DNA of 63,452 bases, filler included, from Sluysia triapertura (GCA_046118255.1; 5 parts of 5 records of this genome joined end to end with filler, not necessarily neighbours in it); one strand, 5' to 3'; positions 14,288-53,140 are shown, counted from the first letter of the whole stretch. Notes: generated from the letters alone by a model not told the origin. Numbers and translations: made by a program.

Positions 14288-14458
14288 CATCATCGGCAGT
14301 GACATTTTCATTTGCATCTATAATTCCATGTCAGTGTAGATGATGATTGGCATCTCAATGTATTTATCTCATCAATTATAATTTTTATTCATTTATTGGC
14401 TACCCAACCAGAACGCATTTTTACATTGCTTTTATATGTTTCTGGTTGAATAGCCGAT
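14288..14458 (+). promoter_or_regulatory. Twin inverted repeats upstream of family locus A
   Basis: IR1 14288-14304/14329-14345 (14/17 paired). IR2 14395-14413/14440-14458 (16/19, contains ATTGG). The regulatory role is inferred. Confidence 0.7.
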
Positions 14459-14615
14459 CGGTAGAGTACTATCAAAAAATTTCTGTATTCATTATTACAT
14501 TTTACTTTTATAAAAAGAAAAAAAAATTACTGACCACAATTTATTTCAAATTATGTCAATTTATTTTATCTGAGCACAATTTTAATTACTACTTTTTGGC
14601 TCAAACAATTTTAAA

Positions 14616-15265
14616 ATGCTTCATGATGAAAACATTTATGTAATATTCAGTTACGAAACTAAAACTAATGTGTTCGATTACAATAAAGATTATAAAGATT
14701 ATGGCCATAAATTTAAAGATTATAAAGATGATGAAAATGATTTAAAGACTATAAAAATGATTATAAAATTAAAGATCATCATGATGATAACAATGAGTTT
14801 AAAGATTATAAACATGATGATTATCGATTTAACTATTTTAAAGATTATATAGATGATAACAACGAGGTCAAAGAGTAAAATCGGGACTATGAAGTTAAAG
14901 TTAACAATATTGATTATCATGAAATTAACGATAGTAAATATGGCCCTTATAAAACTAACATGGTTGCCATCTGTCCATTTGCGACTGATGTCTATGACAT
15001 ATTTATAAAGAAAGGAAGTTCTTGGTGCTACTCCCATATAGTTTGCGAATTACAGTGGATCAAGGAAAACAATTCGTATTCCTTCAGAATTACCGAATTA
15101 GTCAAGAGCCTTAGTTTGTGGACAACGATACCTGTTGACAATAAATCTATTACGAAATATCATGATGTAATTAATTCACTTGCTCATTGTAATAATATTA
15201 TAAATAATGTTTTTTCTTCAGATAGTGAAACAGAGACACATACAAAGATGGTGTTTAACATTTAA
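14616..15265 (+). pseudogene. CCCH-family locus A: acidic KDYKD-type repeats plus a degenerate CCCH finger
   Basis: YKTNMVAICPFATDVYDIFIKKGSSWCYSHIVCEL aligns to the family finger with two Cys lost. Frameshifted. Confidence 0.6.
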
Positions 15266-15886
15266 AATTTTTGTAAATAGAACTCTATATAAACATTTTG
15301 TTTTGTCTTTCAAACAAGATTTTAATGATTATATACAATTTTTAATTTTAAAAAATTAACTAATAAAATTTAATGAATGTTGTTTTAATTATTTTAATCG
15401 TAATCAGACGAATACAATGTATAAATTTAAACTTAATAATCATCTTTAATACAACAAAAAACTATTAAAGTTACATTTTAAATGTTCTGCAAAACATCAA
15501 ATTAAAAAGAATTTTTTACATCAATGTATTACCTTGTTATTCTTCGTGATATTTCTTTATAAACCTTATACATCTCTTTTATTTTTACGTTATTTTTAAA
15601 GAATACAAGATGTCGACATTTTAAGCATTTTAGTTATCAAAGAATCAAACTAAATTAATTCATAAAGGAGATTTATGTTAAAAGAATATGCTTAAAAGAG
15701 TATGCTTAAAAGAAATTTATTTTAAGACATGTTAAGTTTTTAAAGAAATTTAGAAATAATTTCAGGAAAGAAATCAAAGATTTATGTTAAGAATTTATGT
15801 GTTATTTATTTATTTATTTTATTTTAATTATTTTATTTATTATTATTATTTACTTTATTACATTTTTATTATCGACATTTTTATTA

Positions 15887-15939
<53 letters not shown>

Positions 15940-15975
15940 TATACTATTAATTTTCATTAGCATTCATTATATAAT

Positions 15976-16043
15976 CTGTCATTAGTCGACAGTTTTAATT
16001 AAGTATAATGCAAATCACCTTATTAACTCTCGACTAATGACAG
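15976..16043 (+). promoter_or_regulatory. Inverted repeat upstream of locus B
   Basis: ctgtcattagtcga (15976-15989) / tcgactaatgacag (16030-16043) is a perfect 14-bp pair, extendable to 18/19. Confidence 0.7.
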
Positions 16044-16275
16044 TTGCTTAGTACAGTAACAATTTAAATTAACACCACTTAATGATGTCTGTTGGTCAGC
16101 CCATGGGATCTCACTTCTTATATAATTACAATTACGGTAATACCAAAATAATTAAAGGAAAATTTTCAATAATTTTAGTAAAAAGAGAGTCAAAATTTTC
16201 ATGTCACTTATAATACAAGTAAATGTTAAAATGTTTAAACAATATTAAATATTAAAATATTAAAATATTGTTAAA

Positions 16276-17217
16276 ATGTTAAACAATGATATAATCAAAA
16301 GAAAATTTTCAACATCAATGGAAAAAGTGAGTAAAAGGAATGATATTCCATGTAAAGTAGATAGACAAGTTCATCTTGATTATATAAATTATCTATGCAA
16401 AGAAATAGAAATGACAATAAAATTATCAGAATGTAATTTTCTTACCAATCAAAAAGATCTACTTAAAACATAACAAATGTTTAAATCAAAATATTGTATG
16501 TCTTCAATTCAATTATTAGATGTTCTTAAAAAAGAATCCATAAGTGTAATTTTATTAGACGACAGTGTATTAAGACAACATAAAGCTGGCCACATCGTTG
16601 TAGTTTATTCTGTGAATTTTACTTTAAGATCTTTGTATATGAAATCAAACAAAATTATTTAATGTTTAATCAAAATGATATGTAAAGATGATTTAGTTAT
16701 TCAATTTATAGTTAAAACGAAATCTCAACATAACATGATCATCCCTAAATATAAAACTGAAATAATCGATTTATTTAATACAATGTTCGAACAAGCCTAA
16801 GATTTATTCGTTAAATATCGTCAAAGAGAATGCATTCAGAATTCAATAAATCAATATAAATTTTATACTACAAACAATCTCAAAAATCCCGTGATTAGAG
16901 CACCTAAGTAATAGAGCAGATGCAGAATAAACAAATTTTACAAATGTCTCAAAGTAAAGGCACTATGGCCGTCTCACTTAAATGAACATGTCTGTATTAA
17001 ATTTTGGTCCGTCATGTATATGCTCAGTGTCCAAGAATTACATTCATATTCAATCTTCACAGACTGTCCAAATGATCATGTTGAAAGGATCAACGAATTA
17101 TTAGATTCAATACAAGCGAATCAAATTCAAGCGGATTCCGCAACTAACAATTACCAGATCCAAGCTATAGATGAAACTTATTCAATTCCTTCTATCTTTT
17201 ACGCAGAACTAAAATAG
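16276..17217 (+). pseudogene. Locus B: stop-interrupted ORF of unknown product
   Basis: ORFs 16276-16473, 16477-16662 and 17014-17217 are all in the same frame, separated by stops, and lie behind the family-type IR. Confidence 0.45.
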
Positions 17218-17869
17218 GACTCCTCATAAGAAGTTCGTGGTATTCCGAAAAATAGACCGGCTAATAACCATATCTATATACATAACATTTTATAGTTTAT
17301 CTAATCGTAATTAATTAGTTTATCTAATGTTGTAATTAATAAAATATTAAGCCTTTATTTAGTAGATCTATTATTTATTGATTTTAACAGTAATTTATTA
17401 AAAATTTGTTTCTCAAAATCTGTAAATGATAATTTTGACATTTTAATATTTATTTTTGTAAAAATCAACAAAACTAATTTTAATTTAACTTTTATAAAAA
17501 TAAAAATAACACTTGATCACCCAAAGTTCTTTGTGTATAATAACTTGAATTTTGTTAATTTTTATATTTAGTTAAGAAAATTAAAATAGTTAATATTTAC
17601 TCATTGTGACATTTAAACGTATTATTTCTAAGTAAGATTCTCAACTTTTTAGTTACAGAAACGCCAACTACTATTTGTAAGACGTTTACTGTAACCAGAC
17701 CCTGCTCAATTTTTTATTTTATCCTAAGTTTAGCATTAAGAAAACCACAGCAAATGGATATTTATATTTTGAAAATAGAATTTCTTAAATTACTTAAACT
17801 TTTATTTAGTATAATTGATTCTTTTAATATTCATATCATAGCTTAATGATAGATTAATTATCTAAACCG

Positions 17870-18360
17870 GCATTCCATATGTAAGTGGTAGTGTATTAAT
17901 ATTTATTCTGACCAATTATGTGTGAAACGTTTTTCAAAATGATATTTATATTTATGCGCCATTACTTTTTCTTATTTTATATTTTAAATTATTATTCTTA
18001 TTATTAATATAATTATTCTTTAAATCATTAGCATTATTATTTATTACCTCAAGATTTTTAGAAGCATTAAATTGAATTCCATTTATAATTGAATGAACTT
18101 TATTATAAAAGCTTATTAATTGTGATAATAATTTAAACCATTCCATTTTCAGTGAAATGTTTTTATTAAATCATTCAGTAATCATTGCTTTTGGTTCATT
18201 TTCTTCTAAATATAATTTAATGTTATTTGCATTAAAAAATTTATATTTAAAAAACCACAATGTTCCTTTATCATGCTTGAATATTCAGGAATTCTTTTAT
18301 ATCCTCAAATGTATTTTGAAACATTTGGTTCTTTTTCTTTTCTATATTTTAAAGGAGTAA
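17870..18360 (-). mobile_element. Degraded retroviral-type integrase core fragment
   Basis: IINGIQFNASK (cf. SDNGxQFxS) followed by KSNGA (cf. PQSNG). Confidence 0.4.
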
Positions 18361-19539
18361 ACTAAGTTCGTCTTGTGAGTAAATCAATGACTGTTAAAAT
18401 ATGTTGTAACAAATACCGGAAGCATAAAATCTATAAAGTCGAACTAAATATCGTGGGAATTTAATTTAAATGATGTTGATTCTTTTGTAAAGTGTGTGAG
18501 TCCCCTACGGTAATGGTCTTATACAGTTAAGGGCCAACTCGTAGGTTAAACGGAAGAAATGGAGGTCAAATGTGTTACCTGATTAATATTCGAATTTTCG
18601 CTTTATAGCGAGTTTAAATATGTAATTTTGCATATGATCCCAGTTTTAAAAGGATCTAAGATTTAAAAGTTTAGTTATTATGCGTTCGACAGAATTATTA
18701 CGTCAAACTGGACTTTACGTTGATTTTACAACTATAGAACTTGATTTTATACGATAAGATAATAGTTTTAAACCTTAAAGCGCAATTAATTCTACAATTT
18801 ACCTATAGTATATTTATAGTAATAATTCAACAAGGTTTAATAGAGTTCAAATAACAGGTTTATACATTTCATATAAAATAATATAATTACTAATAAAACC
18901 ATTTAATTTCGTCAACTCATCAATTTATCTCAAATAAAAGTTGTATAGGAATTTTAAAAAGTTTATCTTGTTTACTTAATAAACTGAAATTACTACACAC
19001 AAGTTACACAAATAATTTTAGTAAATTTATTTTATTTAAAATAGTTATTCTATTATGAACTAAACTAACGATTATGTACATTGTGAATTAAATTTTTTCT
19101 AATATAAATTTCTTCATCCTTGTTCACACTAATTTAACAGAATTGTTATGAATAACTAGAGAAAATGCTGATCAAGATTTTTCTAATATCAAAATCCTTA
19201 TAACTGAAGCTTTTTATTAAAATCCGTTTTTTAACCCAACTTGTAGTTCAGAACAAAGCTTTAAAAAATCTATCTCTTTTAAATTTGTATAAAATACTGT
19301 TTGACAAATATTACAAAACTTGTAAAAATAATCACTTGATGAATAACGTTCAAGTTACTCACTTTTAGTGTTGTGAGTCATACGGTTTTTAACTCTTTTT
19401 AATTATGAGGTCGTTGACCTTATAGAAATAGATTTTGTACTAAAATAATTCAATACTTTGAAAAAGAATAATAATGGTACTAACAACAATCATAACATAA
19501 TAATAATGCTGTGGTTTTCTTAAATCTAAACCTAAGGCA

Positions 19540-20320
19540 AATTAAAAAATGAGCAGAATCCCGTTATAGTGTTCCTATAACTATGTGTGAATAAAACTTA
19601 GTAAAAAAGAATTTTATGCGTAATTCTTATAGCAGATACAGAATATAATTAAAAAACGTAAAACTTTATTAAATTCTTACAAAATAGGATAAGCTATTAA
19701 AGAATTAAAGAATCAAAATTCAAAAAATAAAATTAAAATGAATATTTAATTTTATCGATAAAATTTAAATTAAAATATTTCCCTTACTAGATCAGGGAAC
19801 AAATGAACTTTAGTTACAAAATGTTTTGAGTAAATATTATTATCTTACCTCCTCGAGGAAGATAAAAACGTCCTAATAAAATCAACTTACCGCAATCATG
19901 GAACTTCAAAGAAATAAGAAACTGAATAATATAATTTTTCGCTGCGAATACTGAAATCGTTCGAATATAATTGTTGATTGAAAAAACTTGACTTAAATAT
20001 AAAATGCTGGGTTTTTCTTAACAAAGACTTACCTAACAGCAAAATAAATTAATATTCATAGTCCCCTTACAGTATATGACATACCAATGGCATATCTGCA
20101 AGTAACGTTTAACGGTATAAAATACTTCTTGCTTTAACGTAAACAATAGAAGACAAAATCGTCGGTAATATTGTTAAACAAATATCGTAAAAGTGCAGTA
20201 ATAACAGTGATCAACGCGTGCGTCTGTATTTAAGTTTAAATATAACTTTGTGCGAATATTATGTCAAGGAAAGTGATTAATTCTCCTACAGATTATCAAT
20301 ATATTTTAGTAGAATATTGT
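19540..20320 (+). mobile_element. Degraded gypsy reverse transcriptase/RNase H remnant
   Basis: Traces of PYRVP-, YPLP- and FEY-like motifs in the expected order; heavily decayed. Confidence 0.3.
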
Positions 20321-21526
20321 TATAACTGAATTTTTTGTTGTAACCTTAATTATTTTGAAGTACTCCAATTCTTATATTAAAATTAACAAATATTACAAAA
20401 ATATATTATTCAAAAAACAAAATTGTCAATTCTATACTATGATTAATACCCAAAAATAATAATATAATATCGATACTAAATTATTTGTAATAAGAGACCT
20501 AGCCCAAAGACTCGATCTATTTATAATTATTTTATAATTGATCTTAGGGGCCAAATAAAAGATGGTGATTTATATTTTAGTGTTATTTTATAATTGGCCT
20601 TAAGGACCAACTGAAAATTAAATAGTTTGAGTCAAGATTTTAACTCTTGCGAGTCTATACGTTATGTAAAATAAACTTATTACTTAATGTATAAAATAAT
20701 TAATAATTGTGATTGAATGTTCGAAGTCAAATATGTTTTTCGGTAATAGTTTGGATAGATCGAGGGCAACTGGAATTTGTGATCTCTCTAATCATAGGCG
20801 CGAGACGAAAGTAAATATTTTAATTGATGAAGCTTCTGCAAACCAAAGTAGAAATCGCAAAATGTAATTGTATTAATATAGTCGCTAAAAGCAATATGGC
20901 CGCTAAACTATTAAATAGAAATTGCAAAATGGTGGTTCTACTGCTGTTTGTTTATATAGTCTTTTGATTATAAAGAGTCGTGTTTTTAAATTTGAGTTAA
21001 TAAAACAATTTATTTCTAGAAACTTCTATTTGAATTACTTTTAAAATAACTAAGTATTAATTTTAATTTTAATATAATTAGAATTTGGATATTTTAAAAA
21101 TTAGTAATTGGAATACTTTTTTTATAGTATTTAATATTATAATTTTTTAATAAATATACAAAACATGCATAAAATATAAAATAATAAAATATAAATAATT
21201 TTATATAAAAATATCAATTAAAATGCTTATTTACAACCTTTACAAAGATGATCATTGACACAAAACAAAAAGCAAAATGACGAAATTAGTAAAATTGATT
21301 CTAGTTTATATATTAGTCATCAACCAATAGTAATCGATGAATGTTCTAGAAACTTCTTTTCTATTTTTAGTAAGGAATTTTATTTTTTAAAAATTAAGTT
21401 TTCTTTTTTAGAAAATAAGTTATTTTATTGCAGTATATTGTTTTTAGGTTTTTTTGAATTTTTAAAAGGATTGTGATGACACTAATAATAATAATCATCA
21501 TCATAGTCATAATCATAATCATAATG

Positions 21527-21562
<36 letters not shown>

Positions 21563-21829
21563 GTAATTTATGTTCATCTCAGTTTGTTTTTCCCATGAAT
21601 TAAACTATTTAATATATAAACAATTTTTAATGTTACATTCATAGTATTTATAACAATTTATTATCATTATCAGAACATGAATACAAATACAAATTTTAAA
21701 TTCTAACAGTCATTTTTGTCTACGTTAAAATAATAATAATTATTATAATTATAATAATAATTATAATAATATATTAATGTATATTGCGCTCATATCTACT
21801 ATGTAAGTACTCAAAAGCGCTTAAGGTAA

Positions 21830-22390
21830 ATTTTTCATCATAATATTTCTGAAACAGAAAGAACTTTGCCTTTTTCTTTGAACTTGTGAACATTTAGATC
21901 ATTTAAGACCTTAGTAACATTTAAGTATTCTTGGAACATCGATAAGCATTTGAGATCATTTAGTAATTTTATAAAGTATTTAAAATCGTTGTTATTGGTA
22001 TTAAGAATAAGTAGAAAAATGAATCAGAGAGGTGAAGGTGAAAAAATCTAGAGCCTCCTGAATGCCTTATAAATTACTAAATAGTTTTAGAATATCAATA
22101 AAATCTTTAAACATAGAATAAGATTCAGTCTAAAAAACAGATTAAAATTAATTAAAATCTTAATTAACTTAATTAAGAAAAAGTACGTTTTTATGAATAA
22201 CTTTTGAATGCGGAATGCAATGTTGAATTTGAAACTGTGTATGTATTTGTTTTTGGAAAGACCTTTCGATGAAAGTATGGTTTGACCGAGTTCAGGCAAG
22301 GAAAGCCTTAATATTGAGCAAAGTCAAGTTTTAATTAATTCTTATTATGCAATGTTGAATTTTTTATATTTAGAGTGATGCAAAAATAAT
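21830..22390. repeat. Dispersed ~0.6-0.8 kb repeat family, copy 1
   Basis: The core agaggtgaaggtgaaaa..tctagagcctcctgaatgccttataaattac...ttaattaagaaaaagtacgttttt is shared with ~33 kb, ~38 kb and ~45 kb. Confidence 0.85.
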
Positions 22391-22589
22391 ATGTTGTGAT
22401 GAATTATTGTTTATGGTCTTTGAATTAAAAATTAAGTTTATAATGATATTTATTTTATCCTTGTTAAACAAACTTATTAGATTAATTAAAAATTTATTCT
22501 TTAAACTTATAAGACAAAGATAATTTTGAAATCATAAGTAATAAACAGTAGAAACTACATAAAAATTTATTTGTAATAATTTTATATTT

Positions 22590-24182
22590 TATAGATGTAA
22601 TCCTGTGTATGCCGTTGATTGATTTCCACATTTCACTATCTGAATAAAAATAAAAGGTTATGGTAACATCAATGAAATGATAGAAATTATTTACTTTTTT
22701 GTTTGTCTATGATTAACGTGTTATTTGACGTATCTCGAACTGGTGATCCGAAACTTATGAGAATTCTTTCGATTCTGGAAAGATGGTCATCATAGTATAT
22801 GCTTCCTGCCTTGGTAGATACTAATTGGTTGACTGTGTGGGCATATTGGCATTCAACTGGCATTCAATCACTGTTGAATGGGCAGAATACTTTTTTGATA
22901 AGTTGACTCGAATTTGGTACGATTAAAGCGTTTATACATTTTTCCGACTGTAAGCTGTAAGATGTAAACTGCTAGCATGATTCTTGATAGTTTCTTTACT
23001 TTCTAATGTATCATAATTCCGTGAAATCGTTTGACAATCATTTGCATAGCTTCGTGTTGCATATTCTACAGTATAATCGTGCATATCCATCATAATATTA
23101 ACTAGAACTGGGAATTGCATTCATGTTTTGAGAAAATGTCATCATCATCATTAATTATAATAGATTCCATATTCACTGATTCATCATCAATATTAAGATC
23201 CTTGGACGAATCATTAGAGATATTGTTCCAAACCAAGTCAGTTAATTTTAACGCATCCATTAGGACATTCACTTGTGCTTTACCAAAACATCGATCATCA
23301 TTAAAAACCAAATGTGACTCCTCTAAAATCTCATATCCATATTTGCAAGAGAATAATGACTTATCGTAAAATGTGCCGTTCGTACCACCGGGATGATAAT
23401 TGTCAGTTTCAACCACAAATCTGAAAGATTTATCTTCATCAAATCCCATCCACTTTATTTCACCATAAAAACTTAATCTATGTTCGTTTTTACATAAGAC
23501 TGCATAACCAATTCCAAAATTGTTTTCTATTCTCTATTCATCTGGTTTCAATACTGTTTTGAAACCGTTGATTGGTTCTTCAATTTTACATTTAACTTCA
23601 TCGATTCCGTAAGTTTCGATCGCATTGTTCTGTGTCTCAACAACACATCTGAAATCTTCATTTTCGAACTGGCACCTTATTATTTTACATTCTGTTTCAT
23701 TTTTAGCAATTACATTAGTTTGTCGTTTAATGTAAGTAAAAATATTGTTATGTTCAGGAATGATACAATGATCATCTTTTTTAATTTCTTTCAAAGAAAT
23801 ATATACTTCAAACTCTTTTTTTCAACAGGTTCTTTCTTAGGAATAGGTTGATCTGTTTTTACTAAAGAACTATTAATTTCTTTAATTTAACCAATTTTCA
23901 ATACTTTTTCACAAAACTGACCATGAATCGTATTCAGATATTGAATTTAAATGTTTTACTTCAATTATATTTGTCTCATAATAATCACAAAATTCATTAG
24001 ATAAATCTAATTTTAAAGACGCTTTGATTTTATTTTCTTCATAACTACTTGTTTACCTTCAGATTCTACAATGATTTTATCACGCTCATTAACGCAATCT
24101 AATACTCTTCCTACAACTTCTTCATGATCATAAAAAATATTATATTTTCATTAATAAGTTCGCATTCAAATTTTTCGCTCAT
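22590..24182 (-). pseudogene. Family locus C: CYLD-type CAP-Gly domain plus C-terminal CCCH finger, with a 3' intron
   Basis: FGIGYAVLCKNEHRLSFYGEIKWMGFDEDKSFRFVVETDNYHPGGTNGTFYDKSLFSC (~23330-23520) resembles CYLD CAP-Gly3 FYGVIRWIG...[22 protein letters not shown]. FCPF...ECQYAHTVNQL at ~22820-22890. GT-AG intron ~22642-22694. Several stops and frameshifts. Confidence 0.7.
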
Positions 24183-24336
24183 TTCTAATTACAAATTAAA
24201 AGTTTGTGAGAATTGTCGTTACAGAAATTTTTTAGTTATCAAATAAATTTGAGATAGAAACATTGTATTTTCTGCAATGTGTTTGGATTGGTTGTTATAT
24301 TTTTAGCAGCTGTTTAATTTTACACCTTTTCTGGAT

Positions 24337-24493
24337 TGGCTGTCCAACCAGAGATAGACAAAAATAATGATGAGATTCACTCTGGTTGGACAACCAGTAC
24401 TAATACGAGCTATTTCAGTGTTGCACAGTCAACCACTATCAATGGTAACAGGATTCACAGATGGTAACTAAACAATGTCACCATTGATGGTGG
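24337..24493 (-). promoter_or_regulatory. Twin inverted repeats upstream of locus C
   Basis: IR1 24433-24450/24476-24493 (16/18). IR2 24337-24353/24380-24396 (16/17). Same order relative to the gene as in the + strand loci. Confidence 0.75.
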
Positions 24494-24598
24494 GTGGCAA
24501 TCATTGGTTTAGTAACAAATTTGAATTAATTAAAAATGATAAAATTAAAGCTGATAATAATAATAATAATAATAAAAATGGTAATAATAATAACACAA

Positions 24599-24642
<44 letters not shown>

Positions 24643-24742: not shown

Positions 24743-24744
24743 TT

Positions 24745-25070
24745 AACTATTGAGTATTGATTGGAGTATAACCAAAAAACTATTATTAATAAAATATTAC
24801 GCACTTCTATCCTAAACAGCGAGGACGAGTATACTGACTCATAAGTTTGTAAATAAGTTTAATATAAAGTGATAGTATTAATTGAGAAGTTCAGAATAAC
24901 TATAAATTTTCTAAAGAGATTTGAATCAATAATATAGAGCAAGAATTTTGAGTATAAAATAGTATCCAGACATATTTAAATTTGATATAGATTTAAACAA
25001 AGAGATAACGCTTAAAATGTTAAAGATTTAGAAGAAGCAAAGACAAATTTTACACTAACATATACTTACA
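24745..25070 (+). repeat. Dispersed repeat, copy 2 of 7715-8040
   Basis: Direct alignment with 7715-8040. Confidence 0.8.
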
Positions 25071-25265
25071 TTTATATAAACTAACTTTAAAAAATTTATT
25101 ACATTACTATTATTATTATTCTTGTTCATTTTTATTATCATTATTATTATTATTATTAAATTAATCGTTAATAATTATTAGTACTAGTAATTATTTATCT
25201 CAGTATTCATTATCATTATCCATTATTCGTATCACATTATTTTTTTTGTTACTAATAGCATTTGT

Positions 25266-25411
25266 ACTGTCAGTAATGACAATCTTTTATTTCGCATAGG
25301 TATTCACTGTCATTACTGACAGTGACTAATAAACAGAGTGGGAGCTATTGGCTGACAGTCACTACTAATCAAATTTTACGTTAAATCATGAATTTTATTG
25401 ACAACCCAATC
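25266..25411 (+). promoter_or_regulatory. Inverted repeat(s) upstream of locus D
   Basis: actgtcagtaatgaca (25266-25281) / tgtcattactgacagt (25308-25323) is a perfect 16-bp pair with a 26-nt spacer. A degenerate second IR follows (attggctga...acaacccaat). Confidence 0.75.
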
Positions 25412-25617
25412 ATTGTTCAGTAGACACATTTTGCTATTAATAGTAAAGATAATAATAGAAATAAATAAACATAGTTTAAAGTACAATTTTTAGAAAATCA
25501 CAATAAAGTCAAGTTTATACGTTGGCAAATAATAGAGTACCTGATATTATAAAGCGATATTAGATAATTTTTATCATAAATAAATTGCTCACGATATTGT
25601 ATATTTAAGTAATAATT

Positions 25618-26290: not shown

Positions 26291-26869
26291 GTATTATTAA
26301 TAAATATTTCGTAAATTAAATTTGTTTTTTTTATTAATTTTATAAAGTTCTAATATGATCTAATGAATTTTTCTTTATTAACAAAAATTTAATTCATAAT
26401 AAACAGCTTAAAACTACAACCACACCAAAATGAATATTGATCTTATAAAGAAATGGAATTAAAGTTTGAAAGTCAAAACTCGCATCATGTATAACTATCT
26501 CAGGTGAATAAGCAACTTTAATCAATGAAATTTTTTTATGAATATTTGTGGAATTTCCAATTTTCTGAAACCTATTTTAATAACTACAATCTACATACAC
26601 CAAACAGATTTGAAATTATTGATTGATGAATTTCAACAAAAGAGAAACAATTAAGAGATATAAATACTGGAAATCAAAACACCTTAAAAGAAAATATGAA
26701 CAATGTACAATAAAACTAAAAAAACCTCTTCGGAGCTAAAAATGTACTCGAATAAACAAACAAAAATATAAACGAACAACTTCAAAAAAATAAGTTAATC
26801 AAAATTGAAAGTACAATAAAACCACTAAAATGAAATAAGTCGAATTAGTTAATAAATCAAATGTTAAGT

Positions 26870-27850: not shown

Positions 27851-27984
27851 ACTACATTCTTCATTAAATCATTCTACAAAGTCATCAAATCATTAACATA
27901 TTTACCTTATCTAAAAAATATAAAAAACCCATCACACTTAAAACATTCAAAAGACATTAAAACATCGTCACATGTAAAACCAGC

Positions 27985-42000: not shown

Positions 42001-42507
42001 TACAAGGCTTTTAAGAGCACAAGCGAATTCAAATACAGATTCGTTTGGCTTTTGTATTCTTGAGTTTAACATTTTAGTGTAATATTTTCCTATGTCATCA
42101 AGTGCTATCTCTTCAGTATAGGCGTTAACAAATGCATTCCAAGACTGTTTATCAGTACTGATTATTTCCTCATATGTCTGGATCACGCCCCATTTAAATA
42201 ATTTTAAATTCTTCTTATATTTTTGGCTTCGGCGATGTTTTCATATTCAAATAAGAAATCGCAGAGATCTTCTTCTGCTCCGTAAAATTTTTTCATTTCA
42301 GGTAATGCAATTATAGGGAGCATATCTCTGGCTAAATGAACCATGCATTCCTTAAAATCATCGTCGTACAGTACAATTTGTTTATCTATTTTTTGCATAA
42401 GTCTTACTATAATTAGTTTAGAGTATAGCAATTTAACAACTAACACTTGCGAAATCTATATTTATTTTATATATCCTTCTGAATACTGTGCCTCACTCTG
42501 GGTACCA
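39100..42507 (-). mobile_element. Decayed Ty3/gypsy LTR retrotransposon: PBS, gag, zinc knuckle, protease, weak integrase traces
   Basis: PBS-like TGGTACCCAGAGTGAGG (42507-42491). gag: KKFYGAEEDLCDFLFEYENIAEA, RIQKPNESVFEFA, KLKTGLRPELR. Knuckle CDNCGKYGH. Protease IETGAESS (~41014-40990) and a frameshifted ILGMD-like motif (~40900). The left boundary rests on weak GPY/F traces and is uncertain. Confidence 0.8.
40647..40780. repeat. 67-bp tandem duplication
   Basis: cagaaagttatattttgca...agatataagtccacgt..atctc occurs at 40647 and again at 40714. Confidence 0.9.
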
Positions 42508-44699
42508 GTTTATTATGCAGAAAAATTTTGTGTTAATTTGTGATTTATGTTTATGTATGATGGGTCCCTTACAATCTTAGTTTTACTCACTTAAGGGCTA
42601 AGTTGTATACAGCAATCAAAAGAAGTAATAATTGGAGGTAAGTAAGATTTTTAAACGTTAATTATTTTATGTAAAATAAAGTCGATTCTTTCCTTAAATA
42701 ATAATTCACGTAAAAGGTTGTAATCATACAGAAAAAACGGTGTCTTAAATTCTTTCTTTTTAATAAGTGGTATCAGATGATGCATTTCTGAACAACTAAA
42801 ACCTCCTTTGACAATTACAAAAAAAAACAAATGATAATTTACATGTGTAAGAGAAGGAATATAAATATAAGTATAAAGAACTGAAATAAACTCATAGAGA
42901 ACAAATAGTTGGATTTTGATAATTGAAAGAAAGTGAATTTAATTTAACTTAAATTAAAATAGAGCTAATGGTTAAAGTCTTGTTAAAATTGAAAAATAAT
43001 TCACTAAAAGTAAATAACATTGTATTTACTATTCTATAAAAAGATTATAAACCAAAGATCATAAGGAGTAAAGTTTAGATAATCATAAAGTCAAATTAGA
43101 ATTGAGATAATCAATGATTTTAATAGAAAAAGAATCGAGTAAAATTTTAGACCTTCACTTAGGTTAAAACCAAAACAGTTAATTATTATAAAATCAAGAC
43201 TTCTTAAGTAGTTAGACCCTCCATTAAAAATCCTACGGGAAATTCGCGTAAAGCATAAAACATTAATCGTAGGTGAACCTAGTAGTTAGTTAAGTTAGTA
43301 GTTAAGTTAAGAAAACACTAACAGCTTTAACTCTCAGCCGTGTGCATTATCAAATTGATTTTTAACACTGCAAAATTATTTTATATGAGGATGAAGCCGA
43401 ATTAGATTTCTTCAGAAAAGACGGGTTTATAGGATTTTATCAATTAATCTACGTTGAAATGTAAAATGCCTTAATCTTTTTACTATTATAAAACAGTTTC
43501 GTTTGAATTGTAAATTCTAATTATTAGTTTATGAACGCATTAAAATTTTCTTCCACTAACTTTGTCGATTAAATAATGAAATTAACATTGAATATAAGAC
43601 AATTTAAAAGGAAAGAACTTTAAACAAGATACCACAACAAAATACAAGATGATAATAATAATAAATAATATGAAACTTTACAAAAATTAAGATTTCTTTT
43701 AATATTGATTTTAAATATTTTAATTTGATTTTCAAGAAACCACTAAAATCGCTCAAAAGGTAAATGATTTTAAGTCTTACATTAACCTAACAAAACAGAT
43801 TTACGCATTACATGGAAAACTTGTAAAAATCAGAATAATAATTAATGCTCCATAATTCCAGGTTAAACAATTATCATTGCTAATGGTTATGAATTTGTCT
43901 TCACTTTGTCAATTGTTGTTTTGCGTTGGAATTTCACTGTCGTAAATAACCACAATACAGCAAAATATTATAATAAATTTTTTGCTATGCACTTGAGCCA
44001 AAATTTGCCTCTAAGAAACTATTTATCTTTTCACTCATGAGCCAAAAATTATTATTTTTGTTAAGCTTTCAATTCCTTTTTTACCATTCAAAAGTTATTA
44101 TAAGCAATTAAAAACAATTGTATTATTTTCAGTGAAATTAATTAAACTAAGAGTTCGTCCGTAGGATCTTGGAATATAAATTATTAAAGTGAGGTTAAAT
44201 GCTTAAAAGCAAAATTCATATGACTTTCAAATGATCGTGTTAAGTAAGACAGTATGCACTAAATGGAATAGACTTTATAATTGTTATGTGGTTACAATAT
44301 GGATTTTGTTGGGGTTCTACCTAGTTTAAATTAGATGATATATTTGAGTATCTTTTTGTACTAAGACTAAAACTAAGATTATCGTCGTGAAAAACTTTAC
44401 AAAAAAGACTTATTTTATGAAGTCGAGACTATATAATTTAATCCTTTGTGATTTTGAATCCTATTTAAAATGATTTGTAAAAATTGTGCGCGTAGATTTA
44501 GTTTTTGGGGATTGACTAAAAATAAATTTATAAAATTTAACGCATCTATTATCATGTTTGAATTGTCCAACTGTGGTTTAGGAGATGAGTAGGAGACATA
44601 TAGAATCATAAAATAAAGGAAGTGATAGATTGAAATTATAAACATTGTTGGAAATAGAATCATGAAAATAAAAACATTTATAATAAGGTTAGCAGCTAA

Positions 44700-45460
44700 A
44701 GAATACTTTAGAGTTTCATAGACCTATAGAAGGTGTTGAGACCTTGTGGAAGCTTGAAATTGACTTGAAAAACCTTTGAAGTTATTGGAGTAACTTCGAG
44801 CTTGTGAACATTGAGATAATCAGAGACATTATTAACCTTTAGGTATTCTTGAAACCTTGATAAGCATCTGGGTTCTTCGAGTAACTTTATAGAGTATTTA
44901 AAATCTTTAAAATATTTGAGAAATAAAATTGTTGTAATTGGTATTAAGAATAAGTTTAGTATAGTAATAATTAACATGAAGAAGTAGAAAAATGAATTAG
45001 AGAGGTGAAGGTGAAAACATCTAGAGCCTCCTGAATGCCTTATAAATTACGTAATAGCTTTAGAACCTCAATAAAACCTTTAAATATAGAATAAGCTTTA
45101 GTTTGAAAATAGATTTATTAATTAAAATCTTAATTAAATTAATTAAGAAAAAGTACGTTTTTGTTAATAACTTTTGATTGCGGAATGCTATGTATTTATT
45201 TTGAAAAAACCTTTCGATGAAGATATGGTTTGACAGAGTTCATGAAAGGAAAGCCTTAATGTTGAACAAAGTCAAATTTTAATTAATTTTTAATTAATTT
45301 TTAATTATGTAATGTTGAATTTTTTATACTTAGAATGATGCAAATGTAATGAATGGAATATGGGATGATTGCTATGAAAGAGGAGAATCTATAAGTGAGT
45401 TCAAAATGTTTGTGGAATTGTTTGTTTGAGAATAAGAACCTTAAAATATTTTTCATTAGA
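44700..45460. repeat. Dispersed repeat family, copy 4 (longest)
   Basis: Aligns with copies 1-3. Confidence 0.85.
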
Positions 45461-45525
45461 CAATTTGGCGTGAAAAATCGAAAATCAATTAAATACTATA
45501 AAGTGAATTGAATTCATTATTTTTA

Positions 45526-45680
45526 TGTTAGACTTCGTAAAATGGACTGACCGGGGATCGAACCCGGACTTCTCGCTGCGCAGTTCGATGCTCGACCACT
45601 GAGCTATCAGCCCCGTCTAACAATTTTATTTTATTATAGTCAATTTTACCAAATGGCACTTTAGGCCTTTTACCCCAACA
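45526..45680 (-). mobile_element. tRNA-carrying TGTT...AACA element, copy 3 (best preserved, no TSD)
   Basis: Reverse complement reads TGTTGGGGTAAAAGGCCTAAAGTGCCATTTGG...TGTTAGAC-G-[tRNA-like]-TTTTACGAAGTCTAACA. Confidence 0.8.
45543..45613 (-). ncRNA. tRNA-like Pol III unit (pseudo-tRNA, Ala-like body)
   Basis: GGGCTGA/TCAGTCC acceptor stem, GCTC/GAGC D stem, CCGGG/CCCGG T stem, A box TAGCTCAGTGG, B box GGTTCGATCCC, followed by TTTT. The anticodon stem does not pair properly. Confidence 0.75.
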
Positions 45681-48099
45681 GAAGTTAAGTATAGAAAAGT
45701 TATTGTAGATTTTGAATTAAAAAATTTATTGGTCACAATGTATCATTAGAAAATAACTAATTTTAATTTGGTCATCTCATTGAATATTGTAAATTTGAAT
45801 TTGAAGTCATTATTGAAATGTTAATAAATCTACAAAAAAGGTCAACTAAATTAGATGTTTTAGAGAAAACACTAAAAACTTCAAAAGAGATTTAGAATAA
45901 CTTTTGAATAAGATGATAAAAATCAGAAAACATAAAGAAAATATCCACGAATCCATTGCACTTAATTAGCATGTACACTAACAATCACAAACAAATACAA
46001 GCTAACAAAAATGGCATAATCCAGAGGTTCCTAAACCCCTTATCATGTTTTTCAGATAGATCCTTTGCTATTCGCTTTGAAAGATTTACGATAAAGTTTG
46101 AAAATCTAATTTGAATACGCTTTTTTAAAATAATACTGTGGGGCAATTCTATAGAATCATAAATAAAGATCATAAATTTGAACTAGAGCTATTTATTACA
46201 TATGTATCTTATTATTTTAACTTATTTCTGAGTGTAATGAATTGGAATTTAACTTTTTACAACTATTAATCCTTTGCGATCCACTGTCCAGAACCACTGC
46301 TCATATATTTCATTGACTTACATTGATTATAGTTATGTTTCTTTTCCATTTATTTAAATTGACTTATTTCATTCTAAAAATCAGTGGATCACTTCAATAA
46401 GAATGAGACTAATTATAAACCGATTTGCTTGATAAAATTTATGTAAACTAAAAATTATCCGTTACATTTTAAAAATTAAACACTCATAATACTAATGACA
46501 GCTTTGGTAATTGTAATAAAGCGATAAAATAGTATAACTTTATTAAAAATATAATTGTGTGCAGATGATTAAAAAAGACAGTTATTAAAGTCGAAATATA
46601 ATGGAAAAGTGTCGATTGGTTAATCTTTTGTTGATTATGATTCAAAATTCGTTCTATAAATAGAAATTCTTATTAGAAAGTATCAATAGAGGATTGTGTT
46701 GTAATAAATATATATTTACTTGAACCATTAAACGTCTGTCAACTATTATTCAAAATTCATTATATAAAATAGCATTAGTTTATTAACTACTAAAATATCA
46801 ATTTTCAATCTAGATTTTCTTGTTAATTATTTATTGAAGTTTCTATTATTTATTTACTCGTTTCTATTGTTAGATATAGAAATACATATTAAATAGAGTT
46901 TGTTTCTAATCTCGGTTTTAAATATCCTCACTGGTTTCGATTAGTAAATAAATGAACACTTAATTTTTTGAAGAAAAATGTATTCATAACAAAATAAACA
47001 GTTAAATAAATAATATTAGTAATAAATAATTAAAATTCTATTATAAAGAACAGTTATATTTATTTTAATGAGATATTATACAATATCGTGTCCGTCATCA
47101 TGGAAAGGAAATCACAATATTTAAAATCAGATTGTTTTAAAATTCTCCTCTATTCTTAACTTATGAATCTCCTTTTATAGTAGTTATCCTACCAATTTAT
47201 CCAGTTGGTTACCCATTCTATAATACTGTAAAATTTTATAAAATGGCCTTATGTTTTTCTTTTGAAATTAAATTAAAGAATTTCTTAGTGAATTCTATAT
47301 ACATTTACAGTTAAGGTAACTTTCTTTATATGCTCGCTTTATTTTGATTTTAAGATTCAAACTCTTTAATGTGAACTTTATCCAATGTTAATAATAACGT
47401 CAAAATAATGCTTTGAATTATTTTGTAACGAATTCTGAACTTTTATCAATATGTATTCTCAATCTTCAACAATTATTATTACTCGTTAACAAGAGTTTAA
47501 AGTATCTTAATAATTGTTTTACCTTATATCGTATAGACTCTTTATCGTCTTGCTTTGTATAGTATTTGTCTTAGATCTATTTTATCTAAAAGTGTGAGCT
47601 GCAATATTCGTTTCGTTGACCTGAAATGGAAACGCAAAGCATGTGTAGATTCTGTTTTAAGATTAAATATAATAGTCAAATACTTGAATTACTAAAATTA
47701 TCTTTTATTATCACGTGGTCTATTAGCCTGCTTTTTTCTGGGAACTCTACTTTCAATAAAAGATCTTCCTCAATAAAATTTATTATAAAATTTTTTATAA
47801 AAATGCCAAAATTAAATATCAATAATATGAATAATAGAATAAGGAAAAATTTTGTTATAAGAATTTTATAGTTAGTTATATTGTATTTAATAATGAAAAA
47901 GATTTTTCTTTTAACTTTTACAAAATTTACAATAAAAAAATTAAATATATTATTATTCAGGCTAATTAGTAATAAAAAAATCACTTACTCAAATAATTAT
48001 CAAATTCTATGAAATAAGGATAACTTGTTCCTTTAAATTTTTGTCTTTGGAATTTATTTAATGTCGTTATATTCTCGAAACTTCGTTAATTAGTTTGTA

Positions 48100-49700
48100 G
48101 ATCATTACTATCAATTCTAGATTTGGTTAGAGCGAAGAAATATTTAACTTGTTGGAAAACTGAAATTTAACAGAACTTCTTAAAATTTTGATTTTTATTT
48201 TATTCTTAATATAAGTTAACCTAATCAAAATATTAACAAATTTAATTTTTAAAACCATTACAAACTGTACAACAAATAAATTGAACAAGCCAATAAAATT
48301 TTTATTATAAATATTATATGAAGGAACGCAACAAATATAAATATACCTATAGTTATAATGCAAGATTCTTTTAAAATTTCGAATAGAAGCGTGATCCATT
48401 TGATAACTAGTCTGCCTACTTTAGCATAAATGAATATTAAACAAAAACTATCAGATCTCGATTCATTACATATCAAAAGACTTGAATTGATACTTATACA
48501 AAAATTTCGAAACTTGACATGATTTTTAAATCTATTAGGACGGCATAAATAAAAAAGTGAAGTCTTTTGAGCTAAAACAAAATTAATATTTTCATCAAAA
48601 TATTGCTGAATATAATAAACTCAACATGTCGTAAAATCAAATATACAAAATTAAATTAAAAAACCCATAAATTTAAAGTTTTTAATGTAAAATAAGAAGA
48701 CATATCTAATCGTATTCCATTCTCTAAACTTATTTCATGTGATATAATAATTGTTAAATTCACGTAAATACCACTAACTGCAGACTGAATATGAATTATA
48801 CTTCGGTAAATTGATACTGCAGTTAGTATAGGATCTAATTTAGTAAATTTAATGAATATTCCATTTATAAATGATAAAATGTTCATAAAAAGTAGTTAAA
48901 ATATTCCAATAAATAATGACATACTTCCAATAGAAGTATCGTAATAAATACTTATTGTTAACATTGGAATAACTTGTTAAAAATTAATATCGATTTTTTT
49001 TATTTAGGTTTCCGAAGAAATTAACTAAAATTAATTTATATATTTTATATTTTTACGCAATTTCAAATGCGGAATGAGAAATTGATCTGTATTTTTGAAC
49101 ACTCGCCTATAATTTCAATAACTTTTCGTAAAAATACTTAAAATCAGATCCATCACTATAAATAATATACGAAATTTCACAAAATAAAGATTTCAAATTT
49201 TGGTGATGTGCAGTTACTGCACTTTGTAGACTATCATATTTGCTGCAGCTTTCTTTGTATTTATTTTCGTTACCAGATGAATAATACACTGGATTTTCAT
49301 GTGATTCTGAAGAAAACTGACACGTAAAGTATATATCACAGAAATCCATTATCTCAGAAATTCGTAAAACATACTTTCTTTCTGATAAATTGTTAACAAA
49401 ATATCCACAAAAACAATTACATCAAATAAAGCAAGAATAATATATAAAAGTTGTTTTTCCATCGTTTCTTTACTCTTGATATATAAATTTGTACAATCAA
49501 GAATAAGTAGCTTTTGATCAATATAAAAATGAGTAACTGCATCTGGGGTTAGATTTTCAGAATGAATTTCTGGGAATTCTTTATTATTTTCACAATTTAA
49601 TAATTTATTATCAATAACTAAATTATCAGCATTCTCTAAAAATTTTACAATAAGAACTATTAGTGCTTCGTCAACCATAAATCTTTTGTAAACTCTTCAA
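48100..49700 (-). pseudogene. Decayed CYLD-USP-like family locus
   Basis: QLLYIILALFDVIVFVDILL (cf. [22 protein letters not shown]) and LAQKTSLFYLCRPNRFKNHVKFRNF (cf. [25 protein letters not shown]). Chain of broken ORFs. Confidence 0.4.
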
Positions 49701-51009
49701 GTGACCTAATTTGTATATTTATATGTTTATATAAATAATGACTTGTGGTGTGTAAGTTAATATTTTCTATTTGAATGAAATTGTCATTTTTCGACCTAAA
49801 ATTTTCTGAATCATACGAATTCGTGATTTTTTCTTGTATAAGTACCTTCTGATTTGCTTTCCCTTTTGTATATAGATTTGTATATAGATTTGTATATAAA
49901 CAGTGATATTTGCATAAGTCAAATATTGTTTATGTTTAGAAAATATAAGTAATTCACAAAACTTCTTTAAATAAATTTGAAAAAAACACAATATTTTATA
50001 GCATAATTCCTAAACATTTCTAATTGAAACGTCACATACAATGGTGCTATTACTATTGATTGGTGCCATGAATTGATTGGGATTTGACCAAGATTTTGAT
50101 GCTTATTGACTATTTAATTGTGTTGATAATTATGATAATAATAGTTGACTTAAAAGTTATCATGCATATATACATACAGAAAATAAATAAATGTATATAC
50201 AAGTATACATACGTAGATGTATATTTTCATATACACACATGAAAATAAGAAGGAAGTGAAAAGTAAGATAGCTGCGATAATAATAAATTTATGATAAAAA
50301 CAATTGTGAGATTAAATTTATAAGAGAATTATTATGTAGCTTAAAGTGATAATGCTGATAGAGTTACGATGACATGAAATTATTGTGAGAGTAATTATTG
50401 TGGTAGGAGTTGTGATAACAATGAGCGTAACTAATGATAATTATATATAATGACTCAAGTAAATTATTTAGTGTTTTGTTTATGTAAGAAATGTTCATTT
50501 GTGATGAAATGTATTTGTGATTTTGATGTAAAAATGTGGAGTTCCCTATAGTAAAAGACTATTTATCGTCGTAGTTAATTTACAGATAAGTACTTTATTT
50601 ATTCTTATACCTTTTAAAATTTTGTGTGGTGGCTGTATTATGTATGCATAAAATTTTGTTAATAATTTTATTAATAATAGCAGATAGCAAAATTTAATAA
50701 TCATCACAATAATATAGAACATAGTAATAATTTACGGTATTATAAACTTTAATGACATCGTAATAATTTGTACTATTATAAATTTTAAAGTAATAAATCA
50801 CATAGTAATATTTTGTTGATACATAATAATTCATTAATAATTTATTAATAATTTATTAATAAACGTAATAATTTATTAATCAATTAACACGTAAAACTAA
50901 ATTATTCTATTCAACAAAAATTCTACAAAAATTATCAAATTTATAGAAATTAATATAAAGAGATAAAAACAACTAGAAAATTTTGAGATTAAAGCTCCTA
51001 GAGCGTTTA

Positions 51010-51109
51010 NNNNNNNNNNNNNNNNNNNNNNNNNNNNNNNNNNNNNNNNNNNNTTAATTAATTAANNNNNNNNNNNNNNNNNNNNNNNNNNNNNNNNNNN
51101 NNNNNNNNN
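51010..51109. other. Artificial contig spacer
   Basis: N44-TTAATTAATTAA-N44. Confidence 0.97.
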
Positions 51110-51406
51110 CTTTTGTTTATATATTTTTACTTGAATAATTTATTTTAAAATTTGTATAAAATTTATTTAAATTTTTTGAATTGATTAATTTATGCAACAA
51201 GGTTCAGTTGAAATGAATGAAATAATTTTTCTTCAAAATATAATACTGTAGACTTCGATAATAGAGTTATAATTTTCATAAATAATAATAATAATGATAA
51301 TAATAATAACAATTATATAGAAACTTAATAAAAATAACCAATTACTCCAATGTAAATATTATTTTTATTCGATTAGGCGGTTCAAAATTAATGTAAACAA
51401 TTTTTA

Positions 51407-51453
<47 letters not shown>

Positions 51454-52967
51454 TAATTTGTAAAGTTCAATACAAAATATAATGCGCTTAGTGTGCTTCA
51501 TACTTATCGTTACTAATATGTTGTATTTCAGTTATAGTTTAATTAACTTATAATAGCTTTTAGAGCGACTACAAAAGAAATTTATAGACCTAAGATCCTT
51601 ACTGAAATAAATATTAAACTAATGCGACTTAAGATCAACAAAACTTTACAATGCATAACTTTTGAGCAACGATTCTGAATGCTTAAATCACAAATATGAC
51701 AGGTATTTATTGAAAGCATAATTGAACCTAATTTGAATAAAATTCTGAAAAAGAATTAACAATACTTCTCGTTTTGAATCTAAAGCATTTATATTATTCT
51801 AATCAGTGATATATATTTCTAATCAGTAATATATATCAGTAATATATATTTTTGATTTTATAATTTTATTAAAATTCCTTCTACTAGCATGATATATTAA
51901 TGTCTTTAAACTTGATTAGCGCATCTCTAAAAATGTATTAGTAAACGTAACAATACAAAAATCTTTACGAAAATATAAGTTATCATAGTTTGACATAAAA
52001 CTGTAGTGGACCACCTTTATAACTATAAAAAATTCAAAAATTTAAAAGAAAAACTAATTAAATCTTCAACACCTCAATATTTATACATTCACAAATCAGT
52101 TCTTTTCCTTAATCTAAGCTATATTCAAAAACTTATAATATATAAATCACAATTACATTTAATACCATTAACTTACACCAACAAATTTATCTGAAACATG
52201 TAAATTATCTACTTTACACCTTCGGATCAATTACAACATCTTAAATTCACGATTCGTCTATGCATAATCACCAACAACACAATATAACATCATCAAAAAC
52301 ATCAAATACACAAATCACATAAAACATTGTACAATAATATTTTAAATATACCAAGAGTTGTATTGCAGTTGCCTTTTTAGATTTACTAAATTACAATCTT
52401 CTCAATAAGCCTTTTATCCACGATCTTCCAACACCTAAATATCGTTTTCAATTATGAACTTCAATACCATCTAAGAACTCATTCTAACATTCTCTATTTC
52501 ATCTAACGACTTAAATCAATTATTATATCTTCAAATGTTAACTAAACTTATCAACTCATTCAAAGCAATTTTTACTCACAACTTTAGTTCCCAACACATT
52601 TTAAATTTATTCCAATATGTTAGAAATCTTTAAGAATTAATGGAAGATCGTGTACAGTTTTAAAGAATTCAATTGTATACAATGTAATAACAACAATAAC
52701 TTGAACATTGTGCACCTTGTTACTGATGTTATTGCATTCAATTTTATCAATTTATGCTTCATTTTAATTTATTATATGTTGAGAAGAAAGACTAGAAGGA
52801 AGTTCGTGTTACACAGAGACAAGATTTTATGCATTTTACTTTACTTTTCTTTTCCTTTTTTTGTTAATAATAATAGTAACAATATTGTTATTGTTGTTAT
52901 TATTATATCAAATTATCAATTTAATTATATAAAAATTTATTGATTAAATTTTATAAAATAACATAAC

Positions 52968-53140
52968 TGGTTACTACCATCACCAGTGTTGACATTTTTC
53001 ATCACAATCATCATTATTGAGTCAACACTGATGATAACCAATCATTCATTAATACTACTTCTATAAATAAATATTGGTACTCATAACTGTCATCTAATTT
53101 TATTAAACTGTATACTAGATAATCCTGATTGGATGACCAA
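52968..53140 (+). promoter_or_regulatory. Twin inverted repeats upstream of locus E
   Basis: IR1 atcaccagtgttgac (52979-52993) / gtcaacactgatgat (53021-53035), 14/15, with outer tggtta/taacca. IR2 gtcatctaat (53089-53098) / attggatgac (53128-53137). Confidence 0.7.

Follow-up and report, generated by a model that had tools for sequence, protein, structure and literature searches.

A covarying twin-hairpin cassette upstream of a decaying CCCH-finger gene family in Sluysia triapertura

What keeps the arms of two inverted repeats (IRs) in front of a gene matched to each other, as the letters of these arms change from one copy of the gene to the next? The question is raised by a stretch of DNA of 63,452 nucleotides from Sluysia triapertura (GCA_046118255.1), hereafter the window, in which a module of two IRs, IR1 followed by IR2, stands upstream of several genes. 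Our analysis establishes that the module is a real, multi-copy, covarying twin-hairpin cassette located before a decaying family of CCCH-finger genes; its role is answered tentatively. No description of such a module was found in a literature search, most subscription papers being outside its coverage.

A covarying pair of hairpins before the genes

The window joins five contigs by linkers (1-11285, 11386-24642, 24743-36623, 36724-51009 and 51110-63452), and its base composition is 25% G+C with a CpG observed/expected ratio of 0.98. The entire window was scanned for IRs with arms 18-42 nt apart and at least four G:C pairs, with 60 local order-2 shuffles as the null. Eight repeats scored at least 15 against a shuffle mean of 0.08 (maximum 1), and ten scored at least 13 against a mean of 0.45 (maximum 2), thus the geometry is commoner than chance, a point on which the original prediction had made itself depend. 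The eight are B1, C1, C2, D1, E1 and A2 (locus letter followed by the number of the IR), a repeat at locus G (57595-57661) that had been overlooked, and H (48773-48827), which looks unrelated; A1 scored 13.6. All five predicted IR1s, as well as IR2 of A and C, were located by the scan at their claimed positions, and seven of the eight strong repeats stand just 5' of a long decayed frame.

On the plus strand, locus A carries a decayed IR1 (14288-14345; 18-bp arms with 15/18 Watson-Crick pairs, 22-nt spacer) and an IR2 (14395-14458; 19-bp arms, 26-nt spacer). Locus C lies on the minus strand, with IR1 at 24428-24498 (23-bp arms, 19 Watson-Crick pairs, 25-nt spacer) and IR2 at 24335-24398 (19-bp arms, 26-nt spacer), the left arm of the latter being itself a 7-bp palindrome. 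The other loci are again on the plus strand. IR1 of D (25266-25323) forms 16/16 pairs around a 26-nt spacer, its right arm being itself a 9-bp palindrome, and IR1 of E (52979-53035) has 15-bp arms (14 paired) and a 27-nt spacer. Locus B has a single IR (15976-16043; 19-bp arms, 18 paired, 30-nt spacer), followed after 48 nt by an IR2-like half (16092-16103) that holds TTGG-N4-CCAA with one change; words with one mismatch occur 17 times in the window, so this half is weak alone. The repeat of G is of the IR2 type, with 14/14 pairs, a 39-nt spacer and a left arm that is itself an 8-bp palindrome. An IR2 had been proposed for A, C and E and in degenerate form for D. It holds for A and C; in D (25347-25411) ATTGG and CCAAT stand in poorly paired arms below the scan threshold, and in the decayed IR2 of E (53089-53137) the arms measure just 10 bp each (53089-53098 and 53128-53137), so that the ATTGG at 53073 is not its start. 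The weak trace reported before locus F (61758-61809) has 10/15 Watson-Crick pairs and was missed by both models, and its membership is unsupported. An imperfect, A/T-rich 20-bp IR (52681-52738, score 14.2) was also seen 240 bp upstream of IR1 of E, with no counterpart seen before A.

The hairpins span 49-71 nt and follow each other in a row, 29-53 nt apart. The modules consistently share the orientation of their gene and end 152-313 bp before its ATG (picked by eye), a wider range than the 150-250 bp originally given.

The original prediction held that the IR1s share only the inner TGACA. In pairwise alignments that include spacers and flanks, however, A and C align at a z-score of 17.5 and A and E at 6.4, and the motif CCAYCA-N7-TGACA occurs three times in the window, every time in A, C or E. 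A and E stay similar for some 180 bp on the upstream side of IR1 (z 5.1); the homology of A, C and E ends at the right arm of IR2, with downstream z of 1.5 or less. B and D do not align to A, C or E by sequence alone. A covariance model built from A, C and E recovers D (33.9 bits, E 2e-6) and gives B only 11.7 bits, with F and G unmatched. The inner words of IR1 are 24-26 nt apart in A, C, D and E. These four are homologous loci, beyond a mere likeness of shape.

It is very improbable that these findings reflect small miniature inverted-repeat transposable elements (MITEs) whose insertion had nothing to do with the genes, or fold-backs that arose by chance in AT-rich DNA. The repeats do resemble very short MITEs, with arms of 14-23 bp and an AT-rich core between them, and neither B nor G aligns to the cassette of A, C, D and E. 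The excess of strong repeats over the 0.08 expected nevertheless speaks against this explanation, as do the fixed order of IR1 and IR2, the homologous spacers and flanks of A, C and E, the lack of a consistent target-site duplication (TSD), and the position of seven of the eight repeats just 5' of a decayed frame.

Each arm matches its own partner best, as had been claimed. The left arms of IR1 share 67/75 identities with their own right arms, which ranks first among 120 pairings, and those of IR2 share 31/36, first among 24. Compared pairwise, A, C, D and E differ by two to five double-sided changes in 15 bp of IR1. In the alignment of A, C and E, 88% of the cells pair and 11/36 pairs carry a double-sided change, a number reached by 0/500 shuffles; in the five-row alignment of IR2, in which D is poorly paired, 8/19 pairs are double-sided and 18/500 shuffles do as well. 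The shuffles ignore the relatedness of the loci, which inflates the control, and these fractions are not probabilities. The own-partner ranking and the 11/36 double-sided pairs show that compensatory change between arms is real and goes beyond simple decay.

The invariant letters are symmetric, i.e., TGACA/TGTCA adjoining the loop of IR1 and TTGG-N4-CCAA in IR2, and all four exact occurrences of the latter in the window lie inside modules. Four of the 18 arms are self-palindromic at P<0.02. With symmetric fixed words and palindromic arms, each repeat can thus be read as two palindromic sites, inverted, with matching cores. In a rival reading, the module is a promoter that acts as double-stranded DNA and consists of palindromic transcription-factor sites in two pairs, NF-Y-like CCAAT and TALE-like TGACAG, whose arms would be kept alike passively by template switching during replication and whose family would grow by segmental duplication. 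We regard it as unlikely. In its favour, CCAATC(A/G) has 7 of its 16 window matches in modules (0.3 expected) and TGACAG 7 of 21 (0.4 expected), an enrichment to be read in the knowledge that these words were already in view when the modules were delimited; the fixed gap between the inner words of IR1 and the location before the ATG also fit. Template switching is described in two reports as homogenising short IR arms and able to create compensatory changes (PMC8604942; 10.1101/2021.04.15.439925). On the other hand, factor sites need no matching middle letters, yet these match. The known composite of TALE and NF-Y sites sets DECA with CCAAT 10-12 bp away (10.64898/2026.02.16.706105; PMC6023610). 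This specific form (TGANTGACAG with CCAAT at 10-12 bp) is absent from the modules: the window holds no exact DECA, and with up to two mismatches at that spacing none falls in a module.

Folding on the gene strand is strong in seven of nine hairpins, at z from -3.8 to -5.5 (A2 -5.5, B1 -5.3, C1 -4.3, C2 -4.7, D1 -5.3, E1 -3.8, G -4.9), the exceptions being A1 (-1.4) and E2 (-1.7). The z-scores are alike on both strands, and among 153 arm positions the mismatches on the gene strand comprise five G.T and six A.C. There is no sign of a preferred strand, the events being few.

The hairpins could instead act as RNA, either as a dumbbell resembling a primary microRNA (pri-miRNA) or as a structured 5' leader, with pairing selected in expressed source genes and the product possibly bound by their own CCCH protein. 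This alternative is possible, although on balance rather unlikely. It draws on the spans of the hairpins and their spacing in pairs, on the double-sided changes, on the constant orientation with the gene, on the gene-strand stems of A2, C1 and D1, which extend to 29-35 pairs, and on the finger in the genes, which belongs to an RNA-binding class. Moreover, microRNAs (miRNAs) of flatworms, rotifers and annelids include long loops (PMC11701709). It is countered by the lack of strand preference in both mismatches and folding. Conserved letters are split and symmetric with no contiguous seed, self-palindromic arms compete with a long stem, and CNNC at +16 to +18 occurs in 1/8. The stem of a canonical miRNA hairpin is given as 30-35 bp (PMC12553114), invertebrate exceptions being on record (PMC11701709); with a loop under 15 nt as the second feature, the modules do not conform, and only 2/9 gene-strand hairpins reach 30 pairs.

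No known RNA family was recognised, in agreement with the original prediction: no Rfam match comes near its gathering score, and the only overlap with a module is mir-582 at 25 bits against a cut-off of 84 (E 1.6). For H/ACA small nucleolar RNA, the ANANNA hinge is present in 1/3 on the gene strand and 3/3 on the other, with the ACA tail (3 nt before the end) in 0/6. The features of spliced-leader RNA that were sought, a donor after the first hairpin and an Sm site between the hairpins, follow PMC8629364. RGGTAA is missing from both strands of six modules, and Sm-like words stand only outside the hinges. The H/ACA, Sm and donor signals are thus absent, which also weighs against RNA. Runs of at least four T occur on the gene strand inside 6/6 modules; such runs would stop polymerase III. 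If the hairpins do act as RNA, they would make up a family of small-RNA or leader hairpins that come in pairs, are specific to this lineage and stay linked to their own genes.

Further features lie upstream of the hairpins. A C-rich, G-poor tract of about 750 bp precedes module A (13351-14100, plus strand), and a similar one precedes E (51901-52650), both with a C skew of 0.46-0.68; their alignment (z 4.9) may be partly compositional. It is followed by a block common to A (14110-14150, plus strand) and E (52774-52810), with z 5.1 and 0/100 shuffles, and by a putative (AAT)n/(ATT)n fold-back (14190-14225, plus strand) about 85-100 bp before IR1, also present in C and E, which was identified by alignment, folds and a motif scan and is of low complexity. 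Elsewhere, G/T-rich tracts ending in GATTGG...CCAA in both cases were observed at locus G (57360-57590) and at a locus J (59450-59566), alike at z 5.4, with a skew opposite to that of the tracts before A and E. On the minus strand, a C-rich tract at 50050-50550 precedes two CCAATCA words, which stand some 380 bp ahead of the frame 49352-49678 (minus strand), with no clear IR; this tract (z 2.6 to A) is possibly related to the cassette in a decayed form.

Decaying genes and their many copies

Every gene of the set is broken by stops or frameshifts somewhere. Gene A (14616-15265, plus strand), with frameshifts and a stop, encodes Tyr/Asp repeats and then a degenerate Unkempt-like finger (14942-15073) that scores 36.2 against a null maximum of 29.5 and gains only 4.7 bits in a hidden Markov model (HMM) built without A. 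Gene C (22813-24182, minus strand) is broken and contains a weak CAP-Gly-like segment (23339-23524; Pfam CAP_GLY E 0.027, best solved relative CYLD chain 1ixd_A E 0.76, both weak) followed by an Unkempt-like finger (22813-22887) with 10.1 bits against a null maximum of 8.7 in the HMM and 38.5 against 28.8 in seed scoring. In gene D (25725-26261, plus strand) the Unkempt-like finger (25974-26102) is followed by a putative GT-AG intron (26145-26223). Gene G (57964-59140, plus strand), also broken, has its finger at 58654-58785 (63.2 against a null maximum of 29.5) and a putative intron at 58942-59006. Its homologue Z (35292-36570, minus strand) has a finger at 35700-35831 and a putative intron at 35491-35555; the upstream region of Z is lost at the contig end (36623). 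D and Z match zf-CCCH_UNK at E 3.6e-6 and 1.2e-6, respectively, both below the curated cut-off. Genes B (16318-17217, plus strand; 299 codons, five stops) and E (53320-54036, plus strand; 238 codons, three stops) belong to no family, and their fingers are not above chance.

Seed scoring, in which each finger was compared with the remaining seeds, placed A, C, D, G and Z above their nulls, but not B, E, F, J, D2 or H. Of the amplified gene family originally proposed, A, C and D are confirmed, with G and Z in addition and with differing N-terminal parts, while B, E and F are not. Finger-like remnants picked by eye in B, E and J did not beat the null; the one in J, near 59920, reaches 13.1 bits with one frameshift and is not above the null in seed scoring. 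A SAM domain suspected by eye after the intron was unsupported by Pfam. Protein searches with finger genes D and Z returned no relatives, apart from CCCH leads for Z that stayed under 0.9, and an alignment of the fingers contained no segment of sufficient conservation to scan viral sequences with. Two broken frames, at 26849-27481 and 61960-62300, encode Tyr-Asp-Glu-Leu-Asn repeats; they are 74% alike over 93 bp and similar in make-up to the repeats of gene A. The stretch GTAATT...TTTTAG that follows the finger measures 79 nt in D and 65 nt in both G and Z, and a putative intron common to these three genes points to copying as DNA.

The contigs of one public run (X1, share 0.53), which may be the source of the window, were aligned on 14100-24560 at 80% likeness. 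Single contigs identical to the window have depths of 12-18, whereas 23 contigs lie over position 14416 with a summed depth of 803 and 43 over position 16003 with 1069, and bins over genes A and C reach 500-1450; the summed contig depth is not a copy number. The plain reading of this pile-up is that tens of related copies exist per subfamily. The loci are therefore multi-copy, as predicted, with up to 43 related contigs on single module positions.

The same contigs bear on how the stems decay. Seven of the 38 pairs of module A are non-Watson-Crick in the window copy. Among 40 of the 1486 contig differences, three affect the arms of A (14334 and 14346 in IR1, 14449 in IR2); at all three, every aligned contig has the other letter, and each such letter restores a Watson-Crick pair. 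It is likely that source copies have near-perfect stems and that dead copies decay one-sidedly, a step drawn from one locus. As dead copies decay in this way and are poorly corrected, the double changes between subfamilies would have arisen in source lineages where pairing mattered. The uncorrected pairs of A also count against the promoter explanation, since they imply that passive correction is slow relative to mutation and that template switching alone is not enough. The original prediction had left the cause open between selection on pairing and arm-to-arm correction; given that A keeps seven of 38 pairs in non-Watson-Crick form and that related contigs carry the pairing letter at three of these positions, selection fits better than automatic correction.

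A possible copying signal

We hypothesize that the hairpin pair is a copying signal, recognised as folded DNA, of a selfish gene unit, and assign this a probability of about 0.35. The module would be the common upstream cassette of multi-copy, decaying units that carry a CCCH-finger gene, whose intact source copies would have needed the twin hairpins to be duplicated. The units may have spread as DNA, as the putative intron in D, G and Z suggests, and each subfamily could have arisen from a source copy whose stems paired almost perfectly. The symmetric words that are conserved, TGACA in IR1 and TTGG-N4-CCAA in IR2, would be recognised by a copying protein within the hairpin stem, formed either by single-stranded DNA or by a cruciform, much as rolling-circle elements read their end hairpins; in that case the middle letters would be free to change only in pairs. 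Proteins read sequence more readily in a DNA stem than in an RNA stem, which fits symmetric words with free and matched cores. The CCAAT and TGACA words may double as a promoter of the downstream gene. There are partial precedents: the 5' hairpin of Helitron2 is described as maintained through compensatory changes (PMC3627910), and the subterminal inverted repeats (subTIRs) of the mite element HINE as palindromic (PMC4067079).

Several observations weigh against such a signal. Within the window contigs, no arm has a distant copy, and far-end partners amount to chance-level 8-9-mers in 6-13 kb of sequence. CTRR is absent at the canonical distance in 5/7 ends and lies within 30 nt in 2/7; direct repeats flanking 12 repeats or modules measure 0-4 nt, none of them common; and Helitron-like 3' ends number 26 window-wide against 27-46 in shuffles. 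The hairpins are internal, as the homology of A and E runs about 180 bp upstream of IR1, and no transposase or Rep was seen within the window. A location 152-313 bp before the ATG, together with the orientation, is no less fitting for a promoter or a leader. The missing strand bias is weak evidence, coming from 11 mismatches in dead copies, the introns of D, G and Z are predicted from their sequence, and near-perfect source stems were seen at three positions of one locus. A 9-mer partner of an arm of D, with a hairpin about 9.6 kb downstream, was dismissed as chance, there being three such 9-mers for D. Neither boundaries, nor TSDs, nor a far-end partner were found in the window for the ends of a mobile unit, which the original prediction had envisaged.

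The hypothesis of a copying signal can be extended, in a form that we consider quite doubtful, to a new class of selfish gene-carrying element that lacks terminal repeats, TSDs and long terminal repeats (LTRs). The twin hairpin would mark the subfamily, the stem letters would drift in pairs as an identity code, and the element's own fast-evolving CCCH-finger gene would read or protect this code. If true, a new element class at six hairpin loci in 63 kb would form a major part of this animal's genome. Should the hairpins be a copying signal at all, they would reveal a gene-carrying element that current repeat finders miss, as it is without the ends they seek, and would account for the large expansion that an RNA-binding finger family has undergone in an animal. 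The many copies also provide a natural series for the old question of how stems change, in two steps under selection or in a single templated one.

Neighbouring features and comparison with known systems

The rest of the window is rich in repeats and remnants. The unrelated-looking H (48773-48827) is an 11-bp perfect IR, each arm of which contains CTGCAG, and a short perfect hairpin with a related word (49208-49222) lies at a distance of 380 bp; both are 3' of the frame 49352-49678 (minus strand) and may be the ends of a different element. A four-copy repeat of 500-800 bp, 70-83% alike, occupies 21876-22390, 32918-33473, 37644-38279 and 44644-45460, and its first copy is extremely abundant, with a summed contig depth of 660,000-965,000 against 12-18 for single contigs. 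A tRNA-derived repeat, likely a short interspersed element, is present at 45498-45680, 8802-8955 and 11406-11578, with flanks common to the three copies and an Rfam tRNA match at 45543-45613. Two further dispersed repeats lie at 12681-12904, 21275-21447 and 55433-55634, and at 17675-17752, 19507-19570 and 55285-55361. In contig 5, sequences near 55325 and 55700 form an imperfect inverted pair that may delimit a MITE about 380 bp long, and two direct copies of a short G+C-richer word stand at 35015-35100, of which the first can fold into a hairpin with a run of T after it. Among the coding sequences, 72 relatives of the exon at 9063-9377 were retrieved at E 0.001 or better, with 57-60% identity, whereas a word-index search returned none and Atlas nothing usable; four of five scanned are cytosolic carboxypeptidases, and of 20 looked up, the three named ones are nemertean, oyster and scallop proteins. 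The host is accordingly an invertebrate animal and likely a spiralian, the identity being too low to fix its group. A degenerate Hsp70-like frame (1768-2620; Pfam HSP70 E 0.15, one part) has no module-type IR before it, and a broken gag-like remnant with a zinc knuckle (41314-42400, minus strand; zf-CCHC E 0.14) is likely an old LTR retrotransposon.

Two matches to the module pattern in metagenome contigs and 25 in viral contigs were judged to be chance, in DNA of 34-63% G+C and mostly without extended arms. Among characterised systems, the finger of D and Z resembles the Unkempt-type CCCH finger (Pfam PF25427) in matching it at the E-values given above and differs in its sub-cut-off scores, in one finger per gene, in variable N-termini and in many broken copies. 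Promoters with DECA and CCAAT share the cluster of TGACAG and CCAAT before a gene (PMC6023610; 10.64898/2026.02.16.706105); here, in contrast, the words lie in paired inverted arms with covarying middle letters, and DECA at 10-12 bp is lacking. Animal pri-miRNA clusters (PMC11701709, PMC12553114) are likewise composed of paired, precursor-size hairpins with compensatory changes, whereas the present hairpins have short stems, loops of 22-39 nt and a fixed place before a gene, with no strand bias, common seed or Rfam match. HelibatN3 and other promoter-capturing bat Helitrons (PMC4778049) also show one upstream promoter-like cassette amplified before different downstream sequences; here, canonical Helitron ends are missing, the cassette is a hairpin pair and the cargo includes a CCCH finger in at least four loci.

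The canonical Helitron 3' end, a palindrome of 16-20 nt about 11 bp before CTRR, does not describe these hairpins of 49-71 nt. The closest known relatives in kind are Helitron2/Helentron elements, including DINE-1 and HINE (PMC3627910, PMC4067079); Helitron2 ends nearer to this geometry may exist. The two systems have in common the pairing of a short arm with an inverted partner close by, self-palindromic arms, compensatory changes between related families, the absence of a TSD and a spread as DNA with passenger genes. They differ in that two long-loop hairpins stand here side by side instead of one at each end, at least 180 bp inside common sequence, whereas the 5' asymmetric terminal inverted repeat of those elements lies 0-4 bp from their 5' end. 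Furthermore, the spacers here are 22-39 nt against 3-22 bp for DINE-1 (PMC4067079), the palindromic 12-15-bp subTIR of the HINE type has a counterpart in 4/18 arms (P<0.02) and not in the other 14, and the window revealed no far-end partner, short 3' stem-loop or RepHel. The module is thus comparable to rolling-circle hairpin ends in anatomy and evolution and, as its membership in Helitron2/Helentron fails, would be placed beside them as an analogue and not classed among them.

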